A stretch of DNA of 64,000 nucleotides from Candidatus Wolfebacteria bacterium (GCA_002401345.1 NVSU01000001.1:68476-132475); one strand, 5' to 3'; shown: positions 3,360-59,877, counted from the first letter of the stretch. Notes: generated from the letters alone by a model not told the origin. A program made the numbers and translations.

Positions 3360-3983
3360 ATGAAAACAATAGGAGCAATTTTTATTCTTATAGTTAATTT
3401 TCTACCGCTCGTGAGCACAGCTCAAAGGGCGGATTCATTGGTAAAGTATTTGAAAATGAGTAGAGGTGAACAAGAGAAACGTATGGGTGTATTTCAGCAC
3501 TACGAGTCATTTGTCCCTCTCATTATAGATACCGTTAAAGGCTGTGGTACTCATAAACAAGAGACTACTAAGATTGATGACTCAACGGTATATGAATTGA
3601 ATATATGGTTGATCCCACTTAATCCAACACTCACCATTCGTTATGAAACAGAATTTGGTGGAGATGGAAATGAAAGTCTGACAGAATCTGTGTATATAGA
3701 TAAGAAGAATGTCTTTGAAGAAAAAATATTCACACAGCATCTTGAGTTTTCGATTACAGGAAATGAAATCAAACTTATGATTGTGATCAATGAAGATCCA
3801 CATTCTGAGTATGGATATACAGCTGTTAATGTACATATCAACGAATCCAATACTCTAGCTGTAAATTTTGACTATGGAGTGAGTAGACGTGTAGATACAG
3901 GTGAGTTCATTACTGAAGTCAAAATCAACATAGAAGCTATATTAGAAGAATTGTCAGTGTATTTTACAACACTCGAAAAGTAA
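3360..3983 (+). CDS. Secreted hypothetical protein (N-terminal signal peptide)
   Basis: 207 aa. The N-terminus is hydrophobic (ILIVNFLPLVSTAQ). It is followed by a perfect hairpin terminator at 3986-4013. Confidence 0.5.
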   Translation: MKTIGAIFILIVNFLPLVSTAQRADSLVKYLKMSRGEQEKRMGVFQHYESFVPLIIDTVKGCGTHKQETTKIDDSTVYELNIWLIPLNPTLTIRYETEFGGDGNESLTESVYIDKKNVFEEKIFTQHLEFSITGNEIKLMIVINEDPHSEYGYTAVNVHINESNTLAVNFDYGVSRRVDTGEFITEVKINIEAILEELSVYFTTLEK

Positions 3984-3985
3984 AA

Positions 3986-4013
3986 GTCCTCATGTAACAT
4001 GAGGACTTTTTTT
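3986..4013 (+). terminator. Intrinsic terminator (AGTCCTCATGT-aa-CATGAGGACT + T-run)
   Basis: Perfect inverted repeat followed by TTTTTTT. Confidence 0.7.
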
Positions 4014-8067: not shown

Positions 8068-8100
8068 AGATGCAGTATATCAGGAAGTTGAGTGAATTAA

Positions 8101-8760: not shown

Positions 8761-8800
8761 CATACTAAAACACCCCGCAGGTGCGGGGTGTTTTAGTATG
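8761..8800 (-). terminator. Intrinsic terminator downstream of cspA, 18-bp perfect palindrome
   Basis: CATACTAAAACACCCCGC-aggt-GCGGGGTGTTTTAGTATG. Confidence 0.7.
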
Positions 8801-21158: not shown

Positions 21159-22396
21159 ACTTCCTTCGAATAAAAATAAAAGAATATCTGGATAAAAATA
21201 AGTTCATGTCTTCTCTCTTTATTCATGGTATATGGATGACAATACGACAAGTGATTGTGCTAGGAAGTGGTCTTGCGCTCTCTATTGCTTTTGCACGACT
21301 TGCTACACAGGAAGTATTCGGACAGTATCAGCTCATCCTTTCAATACTCTCAGTTGTGTCAATTGTTTCCATACCTGGACTCAATATGTCTATATTAGGA
21401 TCAACGGCCCGTGGATTCGAAGGCAGCTTCACGCGCGCGGTGCGCACAAGCTTTCTCTGGAGTCTCATCGGTATTCCTGTGTTACTTGCTGTTGGTGGAT
21501 ACTATTATATATATGAAAATCCTACAGTAGGACTTGCATTTATGGCACTCTCTTTATTCTTTCCATTTCTCTACGCACCGAATACATGGGATTCATTCCT
21601 TCAGGGGAAAGAGCGTTTCGATGTTGCATCACGCTACTCATCAATTCAGGCACTCATAAATGCAGCCACAATAATAGCAATATTATTTTTATTTAAAGAT
21701 AATCTACTTCTTATTGTAGTGGCATATGCACTGACGCTCGCTTTCTTTAATATAGTCTGGTACAAAAAAAGTCTTCGGTATGTAGAAAATAAAAATGAAG
21801 ACAAGGAAACAATTCCCTATGGATGGTTTGTCACAAAAATACAAATTCTCTCACTGATTGCAGGTAATCTCGACAAGGTACTTATAGGAATATTTATAGG
21901 GCCTGTACAATTGGCGGTGTATGCAATTGGAATAAATTTTTCAAAAAAAATTCTTTATTTCGTAAAAAGCCTTCTCGGTGTTGCAACACCAACCATATCC
22001 AAGAAAAATACTGTGAGCATGAAACTCTACAGTAAGATTTTTATTCTTGCGACTATTTTTGCAGGAGCACTCTTTCTATTTATGCCGGTATTAATCCCAT
22101 TTCTTTTCTCGAACAAGTATGTTGATTCTATTTTGCTCTCACAACTCGTTGTAGCCTTTTTACCATTTTACATACTAAACATACTCTATAAAAACCATTT
22201 TCTCCTCTATTTAAAAAATAAACGTATCCTTTTCTATGAATCCATCATATTTCCTATCACAAAAATTCTTCTCATGATTCCACTCATCTATTTCTTCGGA
22301 ATTATCGGTCTTGCGTTCCTCATTGGATTCCAAAATATTCTTAATATGGCGGTGCTTTATCTTCTACACAAAAAAAACAAACAAGTGGTGAAATAA
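21155..22396 (+). CDS. Polysaccharide/oligosaccharide flippase (Wzx-like, MOP superfamily)
   Basis: 413 aa with about 12 TM helices. It sits in a glycan locus with a 4-nt overlap to the upstream gene. Confidence 0.5.
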   Translation: MNFLRIKIKEYLDKNKFMSSLFIHGIWMTIRQVIVLGSGLALSIAFARLATQEVFGQYQLILSILSVVSIVSIPGLNMSILGSTARGFEGSFTRAVRTSFLWSLIGIPVLLAVGGYYYIYENPTVGLAFMALSLFFPFLYAPNTWDSFLQGKERFDVASRYSSIQALINAATIIAILFLFKDNLLLIVVAYALTLAFFNIVWYKKSLRYVENKNEDKETIPYGWFVTKIQILSLIAGNLDKVLIGIFIGPVQLAVYAIGINFSKKILYFVKSLLGVATPTISKKNTVSMKLYSKIFILATIFAGALFLFMPVLIPFLFSNKYVDSILLSQLVVAFLPFYILNILYKNHFLLYLKNKRILFYESIIFPITKILLMIPLIYFFGIIGLAFLIGFQNILNMAVLYLLHKKNKQVVK

Positions 22397-22398
22397 TG

Positions 22399-22435
22399 AG
22401 CTCATAAGCTGAAAAAGTTTCAGCTTATGAGCTCA
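22399..22435. terminator. Bidirectional terminator, 17-bp perfect palindrome between convergent genes
   Basis: GAGCTCATAAGCTGAAA-aag-TTTCAGCTTATGAGCTC. Confidence 0.7.
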
Positions 22436-23047
22436 TTATTTCCTCACTTTAAGGATTATGTCCATACCGTAGCAAGAAAATGTATTTGAAAGATGTGCTT
22501 CGTAGAATTCTTGAGTACGTACATGAAGGTTTACAATTTTACCAAGAATATATTTTTTGAATACCATAGGAATGAAAAATGTGCCACTAAAATAAAGCCA
22601 TTGAGAGACAACCTCAAAATCTAGATCAGTGTAGAATGATGGCACCTGTCGCGTGAGCTTGTCTTGATTTTTTGAGTAATAATAAAATGTATAATATCCA
22701 AAAAATCGCTTATGAGTCGGATCAGAATAATAATACGGATTTGAAAAATGTGGGACAAATATATATATCATACCTCCGGGCTTCAATACACGGTGCATCT
22801 CTCTCATAAGTAAATCAAAATTATCAACGTGCTCAAAAAAGCTCTTGCTGTGTATTTCATCAACAGAATTATCAGGAGCAAACGATAATCCTTTCTCGAG
22901 GTCTGCAACAATATCAATCCCAGACAGTGGAAGCATATCGACAGTAATACGATCGGTACGAGAGGTAGGCCCGCTTCCCAAATCGAGAATAATCTTTTCA
23001 CCCTTTTCAATCTTATCCTTTATAATGTGATGTATTTGATTAGCCAT
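22436..23047 (-). CDS. Class I SAM-dependent methyltransferase
   Basis: LDLGSGPTS motif I. VLKPGGMIYIFVP. Confidence 0.7.
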   Translation of the reverse strand: MANQIHHIIKDKIEKGEKIILDLGSGPTSRTDRITVDMLPLSGIDIVADLEKGLSFAPDNSVDEIHSKSFFEHVDNFDLLMREMHRVLKPGGMIYIFVPHFSNPYYYSDPTHKRFFGYYTFYYYSKNQDKLTRQVPSFYTDLDFEVVSQWLYFSGTFFIPMVFKKYILGKIVNLHVRTQEFYEAHLSNTFSCYGMDIILKVRK

Positions 23048-27132: not shown

Positions 27133-27870
27133 TTATTCGCTCGAAAGACGTGCAAGTACGCCACCATCAACAATAAATTCTTGTCCTGTAATAAATGCAG
27201 ATTTTTTATTATCTGCCAAAAAATAAATGAGTTCTGCAATATCATTTGGAACACCGATTCTACCAACTGGATGTTTTGCAGCAAGATTTTCATTAGTAAT
27301 CTTATTTCTTTTAAGTCCATCCTTAAGCATATCTGTATCAATAGCGCCTGGAAGAATTGTATTGACCCGAATTCCATCGTTAGCAAATTCAAGTGCCATT
27401 GCGCGAGTGAGAGTAGAAAGCGCTCCCTTTGAGGCAGCATATGCAGCAATATTAAGAGAAGTAGCAGTAGAGTGAACTGAGCTTATGTTCACTATAGAAG
27501 CCTTATTTTTCTTTAGTGCTGGGTGGAAAAATTTGGCAATCAAAAAGGCAGCGCGAGTATTAACATCAAACGTTTTATTCCATTCTTCCACAGTGGTATC
27601 GAGAATATTTTTTGAAATCTGAATTGCCGCATTATTAACAACACACCCAAGACGTATCTCTTCTTCTTGTATTTTTATACTTAGTCTTTCGATTTCATCT
27701 GGATCAGATAGATCAATATTATAAAATTCATCGATAAAATTTTTTTTGCCGTTTGATTTTTTATAATCAATCCCGATCACATACCATCCTCGTTCCTTAA
27801 ACAATTCGGCAATGGCACTTCCTATACCCCCCAATACACCCGTAATAAGTATCGTTTTTTTATGTATCAT
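27133..27870 (-). CDS. Short-chain dehydrogenase/reductase (SDR family oxidoreductase)
   Basis: TGVLGGIGSAIA Rossmann motif. YxxxK in YAASKGAL. Confidence 0.8.
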   Translation of the reverse strand: MIHKKTILITGVLGGIGSAIAELFKERGWYVIGIDYKKSNGKKNFIDEFYNIDLSDPDEIERLSIKIQEEEIRLGCVVNNAAIQISKNILDTTVEEWNKTFDVNTRAAFLIAKFFHPALKKNKASIVNISSVHSTATSLNIAAYAASKGALSTLTRAMALEFANDGIRVNTILPGAIDTDMLKDGLKRNKITNENLAAKHPVGRIGVPNDIAELIYFLADNKKSAFITGQEFIVDGGVLARLSSE

Positions 27871-46372: not shown

Positions 46373-48511
46373 CTACTTAAATGCATTACCAACCGATGCG
46401 CTCAATTGAGTGAAATTTACTTGAAGTCGAGCAACAAGCTGTGAGACAAATTCTATTACACCTGCCTTATCATTTCTATTATTTTTTTCTTTTTTATTAT
46501 TTTTTTTGCTTTCCCCTTCTCCATCAGCTTGCGTGTTCTGTTCTTTACCCTCTTCGTTGGAGCTTGGGCGAAGCGAGTCTGATTCGTCATTTTGTATAGT
46601 TTCTTCGAATTCTGAAGAGGATTCTTTTCCTTTTCTTTGTCTTTCTTCTTTCAAATCCTCAATGTTATTTTTAAAATCTTTCAAACTTTTTTTTGTTGTT
46701 CTTGCAAGATCACTCGCCTTTATATACTCCCCCTCGTCAATATTTGTTTGGATCTTATCAAGAAGTGTTATCAATGGCATAAGTATATCTGAAGGAAGTT
46801 CAATGCCCTCTTGAGTTGCCGTAGTAATTATTTCATCCTTTTCACCTTCAAGTTCTTGTAGAAGTTCTTCTGCTTCAGTTTTATGTTTTATATTTTCTTC
46901 TTTTATTTTCTCAATAGTTTGCTTAACATCCTCTAAGCTCTCTTGAGATTTTTGTGCTAAAATTTCTGATTCCTTATACTCTCCGTCTTCAAATGCAGAT
47001 TGAGCTTGCAAGAGAAGCGTGTCAGGTTCAGTATATAATTCCTGAGAAAAATCGACTCCTTCTTGTGTCGCGTCATTAATTATCTTACTTCTCTCTTTTT
47101 CTGATCGAATAATTTGTTCTTCAGACTTTTGCTTCTGTTTCTTCAATTCTTCTGTAATAGTAGAAACTTCATTAAAAGAGTGTTCTGTAAGTCTCGAAAG
47201 GATTTTTGCTGAGTCAAAATCTCCAACTTCAAATGCTGTGTGAGTTTGATTAAGTAAGGTAGTTGAATCGCTAAACACATCATCTGGAAGTTTTATATTA
47301 TTTTTATTTACTTCAGCAAGTATATCTGGCTTTCGTGTTTCTAATTTTTCAATCAACTCCCCTGCTTCTTTCTGTTCATCTACGATATCACCCACTAGCT
47401 CATCAATAGTTTTTTGAGCGCTCACAAGGTTCTCTTTTGCATTTTGTGCAAGTCGCTCAGCCTCTTCGAAATTCTCTGTATCAAAAAAAGATTGTGATCG
47501 TAATAATTCGTCACTGAATTCATCGAGAGTAAATAATGGAAGCTCGATTCCTTTTTTGTTGAACGTATCTACTAATTTTTGTTTTTCATCCCTTGCATCT
47601 TTAATAAGCTTTTGAGCTCTGTGCTCAACTTTCATTTCTTTGGCAATAAGATTTCTATTGCTCTTTAATACTTCTTTAATTTCCTCTATCTCTCTCTCAA
47701 TCTGATCTTCGAGAAGTATAATACTGGAAAGCTCCCTCTCGAGCTCTTCGTCGTCATCGGCTTGAAGTACCAGTGTGATCTGATCCTGAACGGAGCGTTT
47801 CTTATTTTTGAGTGACTGTTTCTCCTCTGTGAGGATTTGTGTAAATAATATCTCCGAGTCTTCAATGGTATCATTTAATTCCTTTGCAAGAGTAGTGACA
47901 TCCTCCCCTTTTTTCTTTTTAGTAGAGACAAGGTCAACCGCATTATTAAGGTTTTGCTTGAGAAATCTTTTTGCAAGTCCTATTTCCTTCTCTCTGTTTG
48001 CTGTACCTTTCTCATTGATAATTTTTTCAATTTCTTTAATTCTCTCACCTGCAAATTCAACTTCAAGTTTAGCCTTGGTCTCAGGACTCGCACTAAATAC
48101 AACTCTTGTTCTCTCACCTAGTATTTTAACGGGATGAAAAATATCTCCTGGTAAACTTTCTCGTGACGTCAACGCACTTCTCACAGGTGTATCAGTCACT
48201 GAAATGAGACCAACACCCAATGAAACTTGTTTGAGAATTTCCTGAGATGGCAAAAAGATTTCCGAAAAAGATGGAATATTCACTCTACCTTCGTTCTGAA
48301 TATTCTCAGTGGATGGAACAAGTCCTGTATGAAGTGGGACTTGATCAATAATTTGTTGAGGTGGTTGAAAAAGATCTGTAAAAAAATTAGCAGAAACAAG
48401 CTGGGGTGCAAAAAAGAATGCCCCCACAAGAAATAGCGGTATTAAAAACCCAGGAACAGAAGTAAATATATTAGATTTTTTCACGGGTAAAATAGTATTA
48501 TTCATATGCAT
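46373..48511 (-). CDS. Secreted, highly charged coiled-coil protein with 4-5 internal repeats of about 55 aa
   Basis: Signal peptide (..LVGAFFFAPQLVSA). Repeats of the form (I/V)(E/D)(L/F)(P/S)xx(I/L)...LLxxxQ(T/S)xF(E/D)xG(D/E)(F/Y)xx(A/S)xxLA... Confidence 0.45.
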   Translation of the reverse strand: MHMNNTILPVKKSNIFTSVPGFLIPLFLVGAFFFAPQLVSANFFTDLFQPPQQIIDQVPLHTGLVPSTENIQNEGRVNIPSFSEIFLPSQEILKQVSLGVGLISVTDTPVRSALTSRESLPGDIFHPVKILGERTRVVFSASPETKAKLEVEFAGERIKEIEKIINEKGTANREKEIGLAKRFLKQNLNNAVDLVSTKKKKGEDVTTLAKELNDTIEDSEILFTQILTEEKQSLKNKKRSVQDQITLVLQADDDEELERELSSIILLEDQIEREIEEIKEVLKSNRNLIAKEMKVEHRAQKLIKDARDEKQKLVDTFNKKGIELPLFTLDEFSDELLRSQSFFDTENFEEAERLAQNAKENLVSAQKTIDELVGDIVDEQKEAGELIEKLETRKPDILAEVNKNNIKLPDDVFSDSTTLLNQTHTAFEVGDFDSAKILSRLTEHSFNEVSTITEELKKQKQKSEEQIIRSEKERSKIINDATQEGVDFSQELYTEPDTLLLQAQSAFEDGEYKESEILAQKSQESLEDVKQTIEKIKEENIKHKTEAEELLQELEGEKDEIITTATQEGIELPSDILMPLITLLDKIQTNIDEGEYIKASDLARTTKKSLKDFKNNIEDLKEERQRKGKESSSEFEETIQNDESDSLRPSSNEEGKEQNTQADGEGESKKNNKKEKNNRNDKAGVIEFVSQLVARLQVNFTQLSASVGNAFK

Positions 48512-48778
48512 TTCTTACACTAATTATAGTATAACAAAGAAAACAATGATTAAATGTGCCCATAGTGGTGCTTTATTTTAGGATATCACACTACTGAATA
48601 AATACACATCATAAAAATTGAAATGCTAAAAAAGCTCATTTTTACATAAAAAAACTGCGATATACGCAGAGCCTCGTGTAGACAATATTAAAACTGTGAA
48701 TTATAAATTACCCCAACTCCCGAGACATCCAATGAATACCAAATAATGTATTTGATCTAAGTCAATAAAATCTAGAAA

Positions 48779-48807
48779 TTGACATAAATAATTAAATATG
48801 CTATAGT
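48779..48807 (+). promoter_or_regulatory. Near-consensus sigma70-type promoter TTGACA-17-TATAGT
   Basis: TTGACAtaaataattaaatatgcTATAGT inside a 650-bp gene-free region. Confidence 0.5.
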
Positions 48808-48840
48808 ATTAATCTATAAGAGGCACAGAATAAAAGCTTT

Positions 48841-48883
48841 AATAGAGCACGGGGTGTGATAATTGCGTCAACCCGTGCTCTAT
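48841..48883 (+). ncRNA. 12-bp stem-loop (AATAGAGCACGG ... CCGTGCTCTATT) about 30 nt downstream of the promoter. It is a candidate sRNA or a structured 5' leader of a small ORF
   Basis: Perfect 12-bp stem with a 19-nt loop. A U-rich stretch follows. The candidate 28-codon ORF (48886..48972) starts directly after it. Confidence 0.35.
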
Positions 48884-48885
48884 TA

Positions 48886-48972
48886 ATGCTTTTATTGTTT
48901 ATAGATAATAAAAAAGCGTCAATTTTGTGCTTAATCACAACAATGACGCTAGTAAAAGTATATCACATATAA
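48886..48972 (+). CDS. Candidate 28-aa hydrophobic small peptide MLLLFIDNKKASILCLITTMTLVKVYHI (speculative)
   Basis: ATG immediately 3' of the stem-loop. One predicted TM helix. No clear SD. Confidence 0.2.
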   Translation: MLLLFIDNKKASILCLITTMTLVKVYHI

Positions 48973-48999
48973 AATAAATGTATAGCAATACAACACGCC

Positions 49000-49058
49000 A
49001 TTTTAAATAAATAAAAAACCAGCATAACTGCTGGTTTTTTATTTATTTAAAATGGGCC
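49000..49058. terminator. 27-bp perfect inverted repeat (CCATTTTAAATAAATAAAAAACCAGCA-taac-TGCTGGTTTTTTATTTATTTAAAATGG), bidirectional terminator-like
   Basis: Perfect long palindrome with A/T runs on both sides. It lies downstream of the NUDIX gene on the minus strand. Confidence 0.5.
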
Positions 49059-49164
49059 CTTCACTGACACTTATACCTTTTATTATGGAGGTGTTTAGTG
49101 ATAGAGAATATATGAATGGGATTAAGGAGAGGTTGGAGTGTATATCTAGTTTTGGTTAATTATT

Positions 49165-49596
49165 TCAATTTTCATAAAACATTTTAATACAACTATCTAA
49201 ATCTCTTATTAAATTAAGTTTGAAAGATTTTTCAGGAGAAGTCCATATATAGTTTTGATGTTCATCTTTACTTAACTTAACATCTGGTTTTTCGCTTATA
49301 GGTAAATGATACATGTAATATGTAAAATCATACTCTGGATAACGAACATATATTTTCTCAAAGAAATTAAAATCAGTTGAATCTTTAATAATCCCTGTTT
49401 CCTCCATCAATTCCCTTTTCATGGCATCAAGTGCTTTTTCTCCTTTGTCTATTTTACCTGCTGGAACCCCCCAACTATTTCCTTGTGATTTATCAGGGTG
49501 CCTATGTAGTAACAGGAACTCACCATCAGATTCAATAAAACAGCTGACTATCTCAAAAATAGGCTTAAATTTTTCAGGTGGCGTTTTATGAATCAT
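49165..49596 (-). CDS. NUDIX hydrolase
   Basis: Nudix box GKIDKGEKALDAMKRELMEETGI. Confidence 0.8.
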   Translation of the reverse strand: MIHKTPPEKFKPIFEIVSCFIESDGEFLLLHRHPDKSQGNSWGVPAGKIDKGEKALDAMKRELMEETGIIKDSTDFNFFEKIYVRYPEYDFTYYMYHLPISEKPDVKLSKDEHQNYIWTSPEKSFKLNLIRDLDSCIKMFYEN

Positions 49597-49599
49597 AAT

Positions 49600-50406
49600 T
49601 TATATCCCGGATGAATTGATGAGTCTGATAAATTCATCTAATGTATCAGATGTCACAGTAGACATAAATTGTGTCATGTGATTATCAAGCCCAGTGTCTT
49701 TCACATAATACTCCTTAGCATAGATGAAATGTTCCTTTGTAAACTCTTCATTCCCTTTCATGCCAAAATAACTTTTCAACTGAGACATTCTCTCAACAAC
49801 CTCTGTAGCACTAAAGAGGTACTCCTTAAGGATTTCTACTAAAACTTCATCATGTTTTTTATTGTGTGCTTTTCTAATTTCTGTAATATCAAACTGCATC
49901 GCATCCTGATCAAAGGCGGATGCAAAATGTTTCATAAAATATTTATTACTGTATACCCTAATTATATGTCCTTTCTCATGAGCCTCAAGAATGCTCTGTG
50001 CAATAATTCTTTTATCAGGATCAATATGTGGCGAAATTATATTTGTCGCAACAGCTTCTCTTGAAACAGGATCTTTAGATTCAGATATATGTAATAAATC
50101 AAAGCCTGGGAAACCATAAACCGGCCTATTTGGATCAAACGATAGAGGAGTATCAATGCTAACCTCTTTAATTTGATGTTTGATCGCTTCTTCTATCTTG
50201 TTTCTTAGCTTATTTATGTCTTCCTTATCTGGATGATTTTCACTTATGTAATAAGCTAAATATAGCTCAACCATTTGATTGAATATATCGAGATTCTCCA
50301 CCCTTTCAAGTAACAGTAAAGTGGGGTGCTCTTGGGAATTTGCCTGTTCTTCGATAGAAGACTTTGGTTTTTCTTCTTTTCCCCCTAATCTAATTTCTTC
50401 CATACA
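49600..50406 (-). CDS. Hypothetical protein with an HExxH motif (possible metallopeptidase-like)
   Basis: ILEAHEKGHIIRV. The start is probably MEEIRL. Confidence 0.35.
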   Translation of the reverse strand, partial: CMEEIRLGGKEEKPKSSIEEQANSQEHPTLLLLERVENLDIFNQMVELYLAYYISENHPDKEDINKLRNKIEEAIKHQIKEVSIDTPLSFDPNRPVYGFPGFDLLHISESKDPVSREAVATNIISPHIDPDKRIIAQSILEAHEKGHIIRVYSNKYFMKHFASAFDQDAMQFDITEIRKAHNKKHDEVLVEILKEYLFSATEVVERMSQLKSYFGMKGNEEFTKEHFIYAKEYYVKDTGLDNHMTQFMSTVTSDTLDEFIRLINSSGI

Positions 50407-50432
50407 CACAGTATACCAGAACCAAAAATACC

Positions 50433-50463
50433 CCACAAACGTGGGGTATTTTTGGTAAATATT
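50433..50463 (-). terminator. Intrinsic terminator (ATACCCCAC-aaac-GTGGGGTAT), downstream of tRNA-His
   Basis: Perfect hairpin with flanking A and T runs. Confidence 0.6.
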
Positions 50464-53135: not shown

Positions 53136-53269
53136 ATATTTAAAGTTTCTCATCAACTATACTCAATGCCTTCTTAATTTTCAAGTATTTACGAGAAAGA
53201 CAATTTATTTTTTTAGCCTTACATTTCTTTTTTTTGATATACTACATATAGATAATTAAAACTGATGTA

Positions 53270-58328: not shown

Positions 58329-58347
58329 GTGTTATTTATTATATATG

Positions 58348-58567
58348 AAAAAGAAAAACCCTGCTGTTACATAGGGTTTTTCTTTTAGTTGTGGTCTTTG
58401 TTGGTTAAGGTCAGGACTCATTTTCAGGAGAACCCCGATTCGGATTTCTAAGGAAATTTCGCCCAACGGGAATTCTGGACCCCCAAGCAGAATTTCCGTT
58501 GGGCGTAAAACCCACCCGGCACTGATCTCTGAGTGGTTGAAATTTAAATTTCTAGACCTGTACTAAT
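58348..58567 (-). ncRNA. GC-rich structured intergenic region ending in a terminator hairpin, 20-30 nt upstream of the kinase-like gene (riboswitch-like leader or ncRNA)
   Basis: 17-bp stem GCCCAACGGGAATTCTG...CAGAATTTCCGTTGGGC (58462-58508). Terminator AACCCTGCTGTTACATAGGGTT + T-run (58352-58378). Local GC is much higher than the flanks. Confidence 0.35.
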
Positions 58568-59314
58568 CTAGATTATTCCCCAAAAATGGTTTATGAAAAT
58601 GGCGCTTATAATATTGCCGAGTATAACAACTACTAACGCAACTACTCCATACCAAAAGAATTTGCTTGAAAAACTTTCTTTGGGGCTTAGAATCTTTCCT
58701 GCAGACCCACTGTTTTCACCAATGTTTCCATGGAAATTTTCTATACTACCAATATTAAACTTTGATTCTATATTTTGTGCTTTTTCTTTCTCTTCCAGAG
58801 TGAATTCCGCCCCCTCTCCTTGAACATCTTGTTTTTCTAATTTTATAGCCCAATCTAGAAGATTGTTTCTGACTACATTCAATATTCCAACAAGAGCTGA
58901 TCTATCAATAAATAATGAAACTTTTGTTTTGACAGGTGAGTCTTTTAATATTTCATTTGCTGATGAAGCAGAGTATGGCATTTCATAACTATCTGACTTA
59001 TTAGAAATAAGCTCCTCAATCTCACTAATAGACTGATTAGCTCGTCTAGATGATATTGTTCTTTCTATGTCAGATTTTTTAAAAAGCACTGGAACCCACC
59101 CCTGGTAAGGATTCCATGCTTTGACCTGACCTGGCATATTTCTATAATCTGGATATGCACTACTGTCCTTATAGCCATTAAGTTCCAATTCAATCCAACT
59201 GAGAAAATCCACTTGATCTAATTTACTCGCCAAAACTTTAACCTCCATAAGTAAACTAGAAACGGAGAGACTATGGTCTTGGATTTTTTTAATGAATTCT
59301 TGAACTTTTGTCAT
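58568..59314 (-). CDS. Membrane-anchored hypothetical protein with an N-terminal domain reminiscent of abortive-infection AbiTii-type proteins
   Basis: LLMEVKVLASKLDQVDFLSWIELELNGY resembles my recollection of the AbiTii N-terminal helix. C-terminal TM. Low-confidence family call. Confidence 0.3.
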   Translation of the reverse strand: MTKVQEFIKKIQDHSLSVSSLLMEVKVLASKLDQVDFLSWIELELNGYKDSSAYPDYRNMPGQVKAWNPYQGWVPVLFKKSDIERTISSRRANQSISEIEELISNKSDSYEMPYSASSANEILKDSPVKTKVSLFIDRSALVGILNVVRNNLLDWAIKLEKQDVQGEGAEFTLEEKEKAQNIESKFNIGSIENFHGNIGENSGSAGKILSPKESFSSKFFWYGVVALVVVILGNIISAIFINHFWGII

Positions 59315-59602
59315 ATTTATGGTGCATCAAATTAAAGAGCTTTATTTAGAAACATCTTTTCTTTTCCGCATAAATTAATAGAAGCATAATACACTGTTTC
59401 CCAAATTAGATAAAGAAAAAAGTGAACCACTTTTTACTCTATGTTTAATTTTGGCTCGAACCCGTAATAAATTTCATTAAATCCTATAAACTAACGGGGA
59501 TTTCCTCTTTAGTTTAAAATTATGAGGAGTTCTTCAATTTGTTCAAAAAAGTTGGTTCGAACTCCTATAAGTTTCTAAAAAGCGCTGCAGTATATAAAAA
59601 AA

Positions 59603-59634
59603 CCCTCCCTATTGGGGGGAGGGAGGGTTTTCTC
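59603..59634 (-). terminator. Intrinsic terminator downstream of the tRNA-Arg/tRNA-Val pair (CCCTCCC-tattgggg-GGAGGGAGGG)
   Basis: G/C hairpin with a flanking A-run (a U-run on the minus strand). Confidence 0.6.
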
Positions 59635-59641
59635 ATTAATG

Positions 59642-59804: not shown

Positions 59805-59877
59805 CTACAGGGAGTTATATTACATAGAACATCAAAACTATATCAGCATTAGCCTTTTAGATCAAGACATATCCGTA

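Follow-up and report, generated by a model that had tools for sequence, protein, structure and literature searches.

What occupies a stretch of DNA that carries no gene in the genome of an uncultivated Candidatus Wolfebacteria bacterium (Candidate Phyla Radiation (CPR)/Parcubacteria)? The question is raised by positions 48512-49164 (hereafter the gap) of a 64-kb segment of this genome, analysed over its whole length and here called the window. The gap is flanked by two minus-strand genes, coding for a NUDIX hydrolase (49165-49596) and for a 712-aa DUF5667-domain protein (46373-48511). A preliminary description of the same DNA had regarded the gap as a gene-free island holding either a type I toxin-antitoxin module, built around a 28-codon open reading frame (ORF), or, as a fallback, a standalone small RNA (sRNA) gene. 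The gene-free character is borne out, as no ORF of at least 60 aa is present in 48512-49164. As to the content of the gap, the sRNA alternative is better supported than the toxin-antitoxin module. With a confidence that falls just short of even, we favour the view that the gap is a small self-contained non-coding RNA locus, bounded by the NUDIX terminator on one side and by the DUF5667 promoter on the other; it would give rise to a plus-strand RNA and possibly to an antisense partner from the minus strand. The positions of all features discussed are reported in Table 1.

Promoter elements of the gap and their counterparts at gene starts

The promoter TTGACA-17-TATAGT proposed earlier for the plus strand (P+) is present exactly where it had been placed, and its -10 element carries, in addition, a TG extension. 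The specific form of this promoter is rare in the window. Sites of the type TTGA-N19-TATAGT occur three times in the 64 kb, compared to 0.29 expected, and a count of three was reached in none of 100 shuffled sequences. The remaining two serve as promoters for tRNA-Leu and the tRNA-Arg/Val pair, both of the form TTGAnn-17-TATAGT on the minus strand (53156-53184 and 59837-59865). Specifically, the distances between the -10 hexamer and the mature 5' end of tRNA-Leu and tRNA-Arg are 20 and 22 nt, and the distance between the -10 hexamer of P+ and the first paired base of the hairpin that follows it (HP1) is 21 nt. This form, shared with the tRNA promoters, is the strongest new evidence for an RNA locus in the gap.

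On the opposite strand, the candidate promoter P- contains an extended -10 element of the type TGnTATACT, which is found six times in the window versus 2.4 expected (six is reached by 2 of 100 shuffles), mostly at gene 5' ends. At 8082..8074 and 50418..50410 the element lies exactly 6 nt ahead of an ATG, and leaderless mRNAs are therefore implied. Two further sites precede gene starts by 11 and 26 nt (48536..48528 belongs to the DUF5667 gene; 53235-53243 also stands at a gene 5' end). P- shows the 6-nt geometry of the leaderless genes, but with the first base of the hairpin HP2 (A48950) in place of the ATG. Since extended -10 sites have a density of 0.55 per kb per strand, the chance of finding one in register with HP2 is about 0.003, a value which is our own estimate and post hoc. 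Both promoter forms present in the gap recur, in this way, at bona fide gene starts of the same window.

The start signals of the neighbouring genes were also inspected. No clear Shine-Dalgarno sequence was detected upstream of any of the 59 long ORFs examined in the window, and across the whole set -10-like hexamers are enriched 0-20 nt from the ATG. This organism appears to initiate translation without Shine-Dalgarno sequences or on leaderless mRNAs. In a genome that lacks Shine-Dalgarno sequences and whose leaders are short or missing, the RNA predicted to start from P+ has no AUG close to its 5' end (~48814) and no typical mRNA start. All together, these elements outline a putative promoter grammar for the organism, in which TTGAnn-17-TATAGT would mark stable RNAs and TGnTATACT 6 nt before an ATG leaderless mRNAs, with no Shine-Dalgarno sequence. 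This grammar could be used for annotating similar genomes.

Table 1. Positions of the predicted elements in and around the gap (window coordinates; z, folding energy relative to shuffled sequence).
Feature	Position	Strand	Description
P+	48779..48807	+	TTGACA-17-TGcTATAGT; predicted start ~48814
P-	48957..48984	-	TATACA-16-TGaTATACT; extended -10 at 48965..48957; predicted start A48950, first base of HP2
HP1	48829..48896	both	arms 48829-48856 / 48869-48896; 28 bp, 2 mismatches, 12-nt loop, perfect 15-bp core
HP2	48915-48950	- (U-tract)	7 bp + 5 bp around a 3x3 internal loop; z -4.3/-4.5
T1	48998..49055	both	perfect 27-bp inverted repeat 48998-49024 / 49029-49055, 4-nt loop; z -10.9
T4	48645..48669	-	short hairpin CTGCG-TATAT-CGCAG (48655-48669), then U7
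28-codon ORF	48886..48972	+	MLLLFIDNKKASILCLITTMTLVKVYHI; AUG paired within the 3' arm of HP1
Extended -10-like TGtGATAAT in HP1 loop	48855..48863	+	would start at ~48870, giving a ~16-nt leader to AUG 48886 without the HP1 5' arm
DNA upstream of P+ (~110 bp)	48670..48778	both	possibly regulatory; weak rod with the promoter region, z ~-3 on either strand
DUF5667 promoter	48523..48536	-	extended -10 TGtTATACT overlapping TATAAT, 11 nt before ATG 48511
NUDIX 3' untranslated region	49056..49164	-	107 nt, unusually long, C/U-rich (CUCCAACCUCUCCUUAAUCCC, ACACCUCCAUAAU)

Hairpins and intrinsic terminators

The hairpins of the gap were evaluated by comparing their folding energy with that of shuffled sequences (z-scores). 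Downstream of P+, a 12-bp stem with a 19-nt loop had been described at 48841-48883. A hairpin is indeed found at this position, but its size had been understated, as HP1 comprises 28 bp closed by a 12-nt loop, with an outer 6-bp extension, CUAUAA/UUAUAG, formed by 48814-48819 and 48899-48904. The folding energy of HP1 is -40.2 kcal/mol on the plus strand (z -8.2), and a comparable z-score of -8.7 was obtained on the minus strand. In both directions AAUAAAA precedes a GC-closed stem, which is followed by UUUUAUU. On the basis of this arrangement of A-tract, GC-closed stem and U-tract, HP1 is a probable bidirectional terminator.

The perfect 27-bp inverted repeat reported at 49000-49058 is likewise confirmed, although at coordinates shifted by 2-3 nt. 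This element, T1, has the core A6-CCAGCA-uaac-TGCTGG-T6 and is the first terminator downstream of the NUDIX gene. As judged from these features it is an ordinary bidirectional intrinsic terminator, which would serve the NUDIX mRNA on the minus strand and the read-through RNA on the plus strand. The palindrome assigned to 48911-48949 is also present, but at the corrected position given for HP2, where its z-score is about -4.4; on the minus strand HP2 is followed by UUUUUAUUAU. The hairpin of T4, when considered alone, is not significant (z -1.2). T4 is likely to shield the DUF5667 promoter from read-through coming from upstream. A GC-containing stem-loop followed by a U-tract is found on both strands in the case of T1 and HP1, and on the minus strand only in the case of HP2 and T4. 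When the predicted plus transcript from 48814 to 49046 was folded as a whole, the energy obtained was -80 kcal/mol, compared to -38 ± 3.7 for shuffled sequences (z -11.5).

Inverted repeats with the same A-tract/stem/U-tract layout and with arms of 14-32 nt are located at many gene and tRNA ends, about ten others being present in the window. Examples map to 3982-4010, 8761-8800, 22383-22449, 50421-50456 and 59594-59636. Among these, the inverted repeat at 22383-22449 has 32-nt arms (94%) and overlaps the ends of two convergent genes. The two separate terminators at 2101-2143 and 2758-2799 have a common stem sequence, AAAAAGCCTCTTATA.

A candidate small RNA locus

The elements described above can be combined in a simple scheme. 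Transcription from P+, a promoter of the tRNA-gene type, would yield an RNA beginning at about 48814, with a 15-nt single-stranded 5' end followed by HP1. Because HP1 has the layout of the bidirectional terminators of this genome, the majority of plus transcripts would stop there, after about 85 nt, so that an 85-nt hairpin RNA would be the abundant form. The transcripts reading through HP1 would end at T1, with a length of about 230 nt. Transcription from P- would produce an RNA of about 42 nt, extending from 48950 to about 48909 and consisting of HP2 and its U-tract. This RNA would match nucleotides 96-137 of the read-through plus RNA with perfect complementarity. Pairing would begin via the complementary 6-nt loops CUUAAU/AUUAAG and would lead to a duplex, a predicted RNase III substrate. 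The firing of both promoters, the ends of the transcripts and the sense/antisense pairing of the two RNAs are what we infer from the arrangement of the elements.

The gap thus possesses its own promoter and its own terminator, with no credible ORF, as a stand-alone sRNA gene would. The fallback proposal of a standalone sRNA gene gains support from the tRNA-type promoter, the strongly structured RNA, the intrinsic terminators and the lack of a typical mRNA start.

The searches for relatives were carried out at the level of the flanking proteins, of the gap and of its single elements. The DUF5667 protein retrieved only itself, in a search saturated by low-complexity candidates. When genome contigs were scanned with the neighbouring GT2 glycosyltransferase, matches of 53-65% from many phyla were obtained, and the source metagenome-assembled genome was not among them. 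In a metagenome scan for the HP1 stem, AGAGCACGGG-N8-22-CCCGTGCTCT, the 40 lowest-GC hits among the matches listed were unrelated hairpins in unrelated contexts. Scans of viral contigs gave one chance match, and no match for a second pattern. The gap gave no hit by BLAST against phage and plasmid collections, nor by blastn and nhmmer against 1.57 Mb of fetched loci, and no repeat of its sequence was found within the window. Sub-threshold Rfam matches (E <= 10) coincide with HP1 and T1, namely Thr_leader (33 bits versus 55), STnc370 (34 versus 54) and OrzO-P (20 versus 60), and the models of 6S, SRP, tmRNA, RNase P and 5S RNAs gave no match in the gap even at E <= 10. The locus is best read as a lineage-specific one, an orphan small-RNA or antisense locus.

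The same sequence is found on a 122-kb ENA contig and on two JGI contigs, with 100% identity over up to 12.4 kb, and the features described are identical across the three independently assembled contigs, all in one orientation. Therefore, the gap is not an assembly artefact; the same identity implies that there is no micro-diversity to use.

Several points weigh against the presence of such a locus. Homologues of the flanking NUDIX protein and of the nearby VKOR protein do not exceed 54% identity; the five homologue loci inspected are all non-syntenic, and no comparable gap is seen in them. Rfam 15 returned no gathering-level match in the gap, and no target of the predicted RNAs emerged above shuffled controls when the window's 59 gene starts were searched. 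On the side of the promoters, neither the region nor the window shows an enrichment of generic sigma-70 consensus matches (sites with at least 11 of 12 matches in the window: 2 observed versus 3.6 expected), and the argument drawn from the promoter type is partly post hoc. As a terminator HP1 is atypical, having an AU-rich lower stem and a U-U mismatch beside the U-tract; its efficiency is therefore uncertain, and the ratio between short and long transcripts is a guess. A 42-nt RNA that coincides with a terminator hairpin alone is unusual. Finally, the locus is a prediction drawn from the sequence of a single genome.

If true, a dedicated sRNA/antisense locus with a tRNA-type promoter would represent an entry point to RNA regulation in CPR/Patescibacteria, a group for which our literature searches turned up no paper about sRNAs, type I toxin-antitoxin systems, RNA-based regulation or translation-initiation signals.

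An unlikely alternative: terminators and regulatory DNA without an RNA gene

The competing explanation that survives best, and that we nevertheless consider unlikely, dispenses with an RNA gene. The gap would consist of tandem terminators downstream of the NUDIX gene and of regulatory or insulating DNA upstream of the DUF5667 gene, whose product is taken to be a secreted and probably highly expressed protein, and the promoter-like sites would be inactive or weak. The orientation of the terminators agrees with this explanation, as T1, HP2, HP1 and T4 all show U-rich tails on the minus strand, the strand of every gene neighbouring the gap, and long bidirectional terminators are general in this genome. 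The lack of enrichment of generic promoter matches points in the same direction, as does the position of the one other 11-of-12 consensus match, which sits antisense within a gene. However, the other terminators of the window are single and lie within a few nt of the gene end, so that four of them in a row over 400 bp would be unique here. In addition, P+ is of the tRNA promoter type, while P- is of the leaderless-gene type and stands in exact register with HP2. Moreover, 500 bp without function are rarely kept by a streamlined genome.

The 28-codon frame and the toxin-antitoxin proposal

A type I toxin-antitoxin module, the first proposal of the preliminary description, is improbable in the light of our data. 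In such a module the plus RNA would encode a 28-aa membrane peptide, its AUG being locked in HP1, and the minus RNA of about 42 nt would act as the antitoxin, covering codons 10-22. Release of the AUG could come from cleavage by RNase III, or from a transcript initiated at the extended -10 element in the HP1 loop.

The RNA architecture required by this proposal is in part present and in part plausible. A48886 and G48888 pair with T48839 and C48837, so the start codon is sequestered inside the 28-bp stem of HP1. Codons 10-22 of the ORF face, on the other strand, a predicted antisense promoter convergent to P+ (TGaTATACT, 48965..48957) and a terminator hairpin, and the complementary hairpin loops show YUNR-type motifs, as read from the sequence. 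The extended -10-like TGtGATAAT of the HP1 loop would leave about 16 nt ahead of the AUG, in keeping with the short leaders of the genome; its role as a working promoter is speculative. The peptide is moderately hydrophobic, with a grand average of hydropathy of 1.21 and a best 17-aa window of 1.55.

It is the toxin ORF that does not rise above chance level. The 48886-48972 frame exists as described, but sequences simulated at equal size (653 bp) and composition hold on average 2.0 ATG ORFs with 28 codons or more, and the probability of at least one is 0.88. The hydropathy of the ORF falls in the top 8-13% of spurious ORFs, when 106 ATG ORFs of 25-32 codons from the window are considered. No uncharged run in the peptide is longer than 13 residues, which is little for a membrane helix, and the single transmembrane helix attributed to the peptide was thus overstated. 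The codon-usage score is -0.02, compared to 0.13 ± 0.10 for real coding chunks and -0.14 ± 0.11 for spurious frames; it lies between the two and slightly nearer to the spurious ones. No match was found in Pfam and NCBIfam, toxin families included, and a GTG-extended 38-aa version has no homologue at E <= 0.001 among 1.84 billion representative proteins. Neither the ORF nor the locus has a second copy within the 64-kb window. Comparison of the plus RNA region (48814-48998) with the left part of the island and with the DNA past T1 gave no direct repeats of the par/Fst type above shuffled controls. Furthermore, termination at HP1, if real, would keep most plus transcripts from reaching the ORF. 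The missing Shine-Dalgarno sequence is uninformative, as none of the 59 long ORFs has a clear one.

A further indication comes from the composition of the frame, which runs over the 3' arm of HP1, the spacer, the whole of HP2 and the minus-strand promoter. Being pieced together from parts of HP1, HP2 and P-, the ORF fits a fortuitous frame, and this is probably what it is. A more unusual reading is a nested design. In this design, the tRNA-type promoter would produce a self-terminating hairpin RNA, the HP1-loop promoter would produce an mRNA devoid of the HP1 5' arm, and for this reason escaping termination, with the AUG of the 28-aa membrane peptide exposed, and the 42-nt antisense RNA would hold this mRNA in check. 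We regard such a combination as somewhat less probable still than the plain module.

Leader RNA, mobile element and other improbable explanations

A very improbable alternative is that the gap belongs to a long regulated 5' leader of the cell-surface glycan cluster, transcribed from the minus-strand promoter at 48965 through HP2, HP1 and T4 by processive antitermination. It would account for a minus-strand promoter and three successive minus-strand terminators ahead of a glycosyltransferase cluster, and for the rod formed on the minus strand by 48828-48670 (z -3.3). The plus-strand fold of the same interval is, however, equally significant, and the DUF5667 gene has a promoter directly before its own ATG. 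The known antitermination RNAs (EAR and similar) were not detected, and no NusG paralogue is present among the 13 listed genes around the gap.

The remnant of a mobile or invertible element, either a palindromic insertion resembling a miniature inverted-repeat transposable element or a flippable promoter between inverted repeats, is hardly credible: a weak inverted repeat (48776-48796 / 49151-49171, 81%) and the pair GCCTCGTGTAGA (48671-48682) / TCTATAAGAGGC (48813-48824), matching at 10/12 positions as read from the sequence, flanking P+ and lying in the outer stem of the rod fold, would suit it, but AT-rich DNA is expected to contain inverted repeats this good, the window, the phage and plasmid collections and the 1.57 Mb of fetched loci hold no other copy, all assemblies share one orientation, and no recombinase is found among the 13 listed genes around the gap.

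Other candidates were considered and rejected. An invertible promoter was dropped on account of the flanking repeat, of only 10/12, and of the orientation shared by the assemblies. A 6S-like rod on the minus strand (48828-48645) reaches a z-score of -3.3, but shows no central bubble and no promoter, and the plus-strand fold is equally significant. A recent pseudogene was discarded since the six-frame translation of the gap shows no long stop-free stretch, and a replication origin since there is no cluster of DnaA boxes and the GC skew is monotonic. Guide arrays of the TIGR type (PMC12045711) were dropped as well, the gap having neither tandem nor direct repeats.

Comparison with known regulatory systems

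The candidate sRNA locus was compared with characterised systems. T1, and HP1 by its layout, share with bidirectional intrinsic terminators the A-tract, the GC-closed stem-loop, the U-tract and the use of both strands. In contrast to the usual examples, HP1 is located just 15 nt past a strong promoter and has a 28-bp stem with an AU-rich, mismatched lower part, and T1 lies 107 nt beyond the NUDIX stop codon rather than directly after it.

CopA/CopT, RNA-IN/RNA-OUT and Sok/hok are cis-encoded antisense pairs in which recognition occurs through hairpin loops. As in these pairs, the locus shows predicted convergent promoters, a short putative U-tailed single-hairpin RNA fully complementary to a longer transcript, and complementary 6-nt loops. 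Unlike them, it has no plasmid, transposase or established toxin context, and the overlap between the two RNAs would arise only if the plus RNA reads through HP1.

The par/Fst-RNAII system of pAD1, Ibs/Sib and TisB/IstR are type I toxin-antitoxin systems. The locus resembles them in having a hydrophobic ORF of toxin size, with its start in a stable 5' structure and a predicted antisense RNA opposite. It differs from them in that the ORF is chance-like and less hydrophobic, matches no family, has no paralogue in the 64 kb and is not accompanied by par-type repeats. Finally, an orphan promoter, a structured RNA, a terminator and no credible ORF are shared with stand-alone trans-acting sRNA genes, whereas the lack of a matching family and the host, a CPR bacterium, set the locus apart.

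Genomic context and neighbouring genes

In a crude ORF map of the window, 48512-49164 is the largest gap. The other large gaps of the map contain a cold-shock gene, coding sequence or tRNAs, and 48512-49164 is therefore the largest truly non-coding one. On the minus strand, the apparent gap at 27450-27866 encodes what looks like a short-chain dehydrogenase N-terminus, overlapping a long TTG-started ORF; the gene boundaries around it need proper gene calling.

The NUDIX protein is identical to NCBI COB64_00605. An extended -10-like TGaAATAAT (49167..49159, minus strand) overlaps the stop codon of its gene, and the 3' untranslated region could, from this element, give a separate RNA of about 145 nt. 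On the other side of the gap, the N-terminus of the DUF5667 protein reads like a signal or a membrane anchor, and glycosyltransferase and epimerase genes are found beyond its gene, in a cluster comprising DUF5667, GT2, epimerase, GT4 and others.

Beside the NUDIX gene, the minus-strand ORF at 49600-50436 codes for a hypothetical protein with an HEKGH (HExxH) motif and no Pfam hit, which suggests an unannotated metallopeptidase. The start of this 278-aa ORF is probably ATG 50403 (267 aa), matching the public gene call.

Other non-coding stretches of the window

Two further minus-strand stretches of the window are of note. At 59315-59590, about 275 nt of non-coding sequence between the terminator of tRNA-Val and the next gene contain two GGUUCGA-like motifs and a terminator-like AAAAAGUGGUUCACUUUUUU; neither ARAGORN nor Rfam gave a hit in this stretch. 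At 58329-58628, in the gap after the gene at 58568-59314, a second orphan hairpin is present, with no Rfam match. It is GC-richer, has a stem of 17-18 bp (CGCCCAACGGaAAUUCUG...CAGAAUUcCCGUUGGGCG) and a z-score of -4.05, and the element ends at a terminator (58386-58349). A possible promoter, TGtTATACT, is located at 58628..58620, inside the upstream gene.

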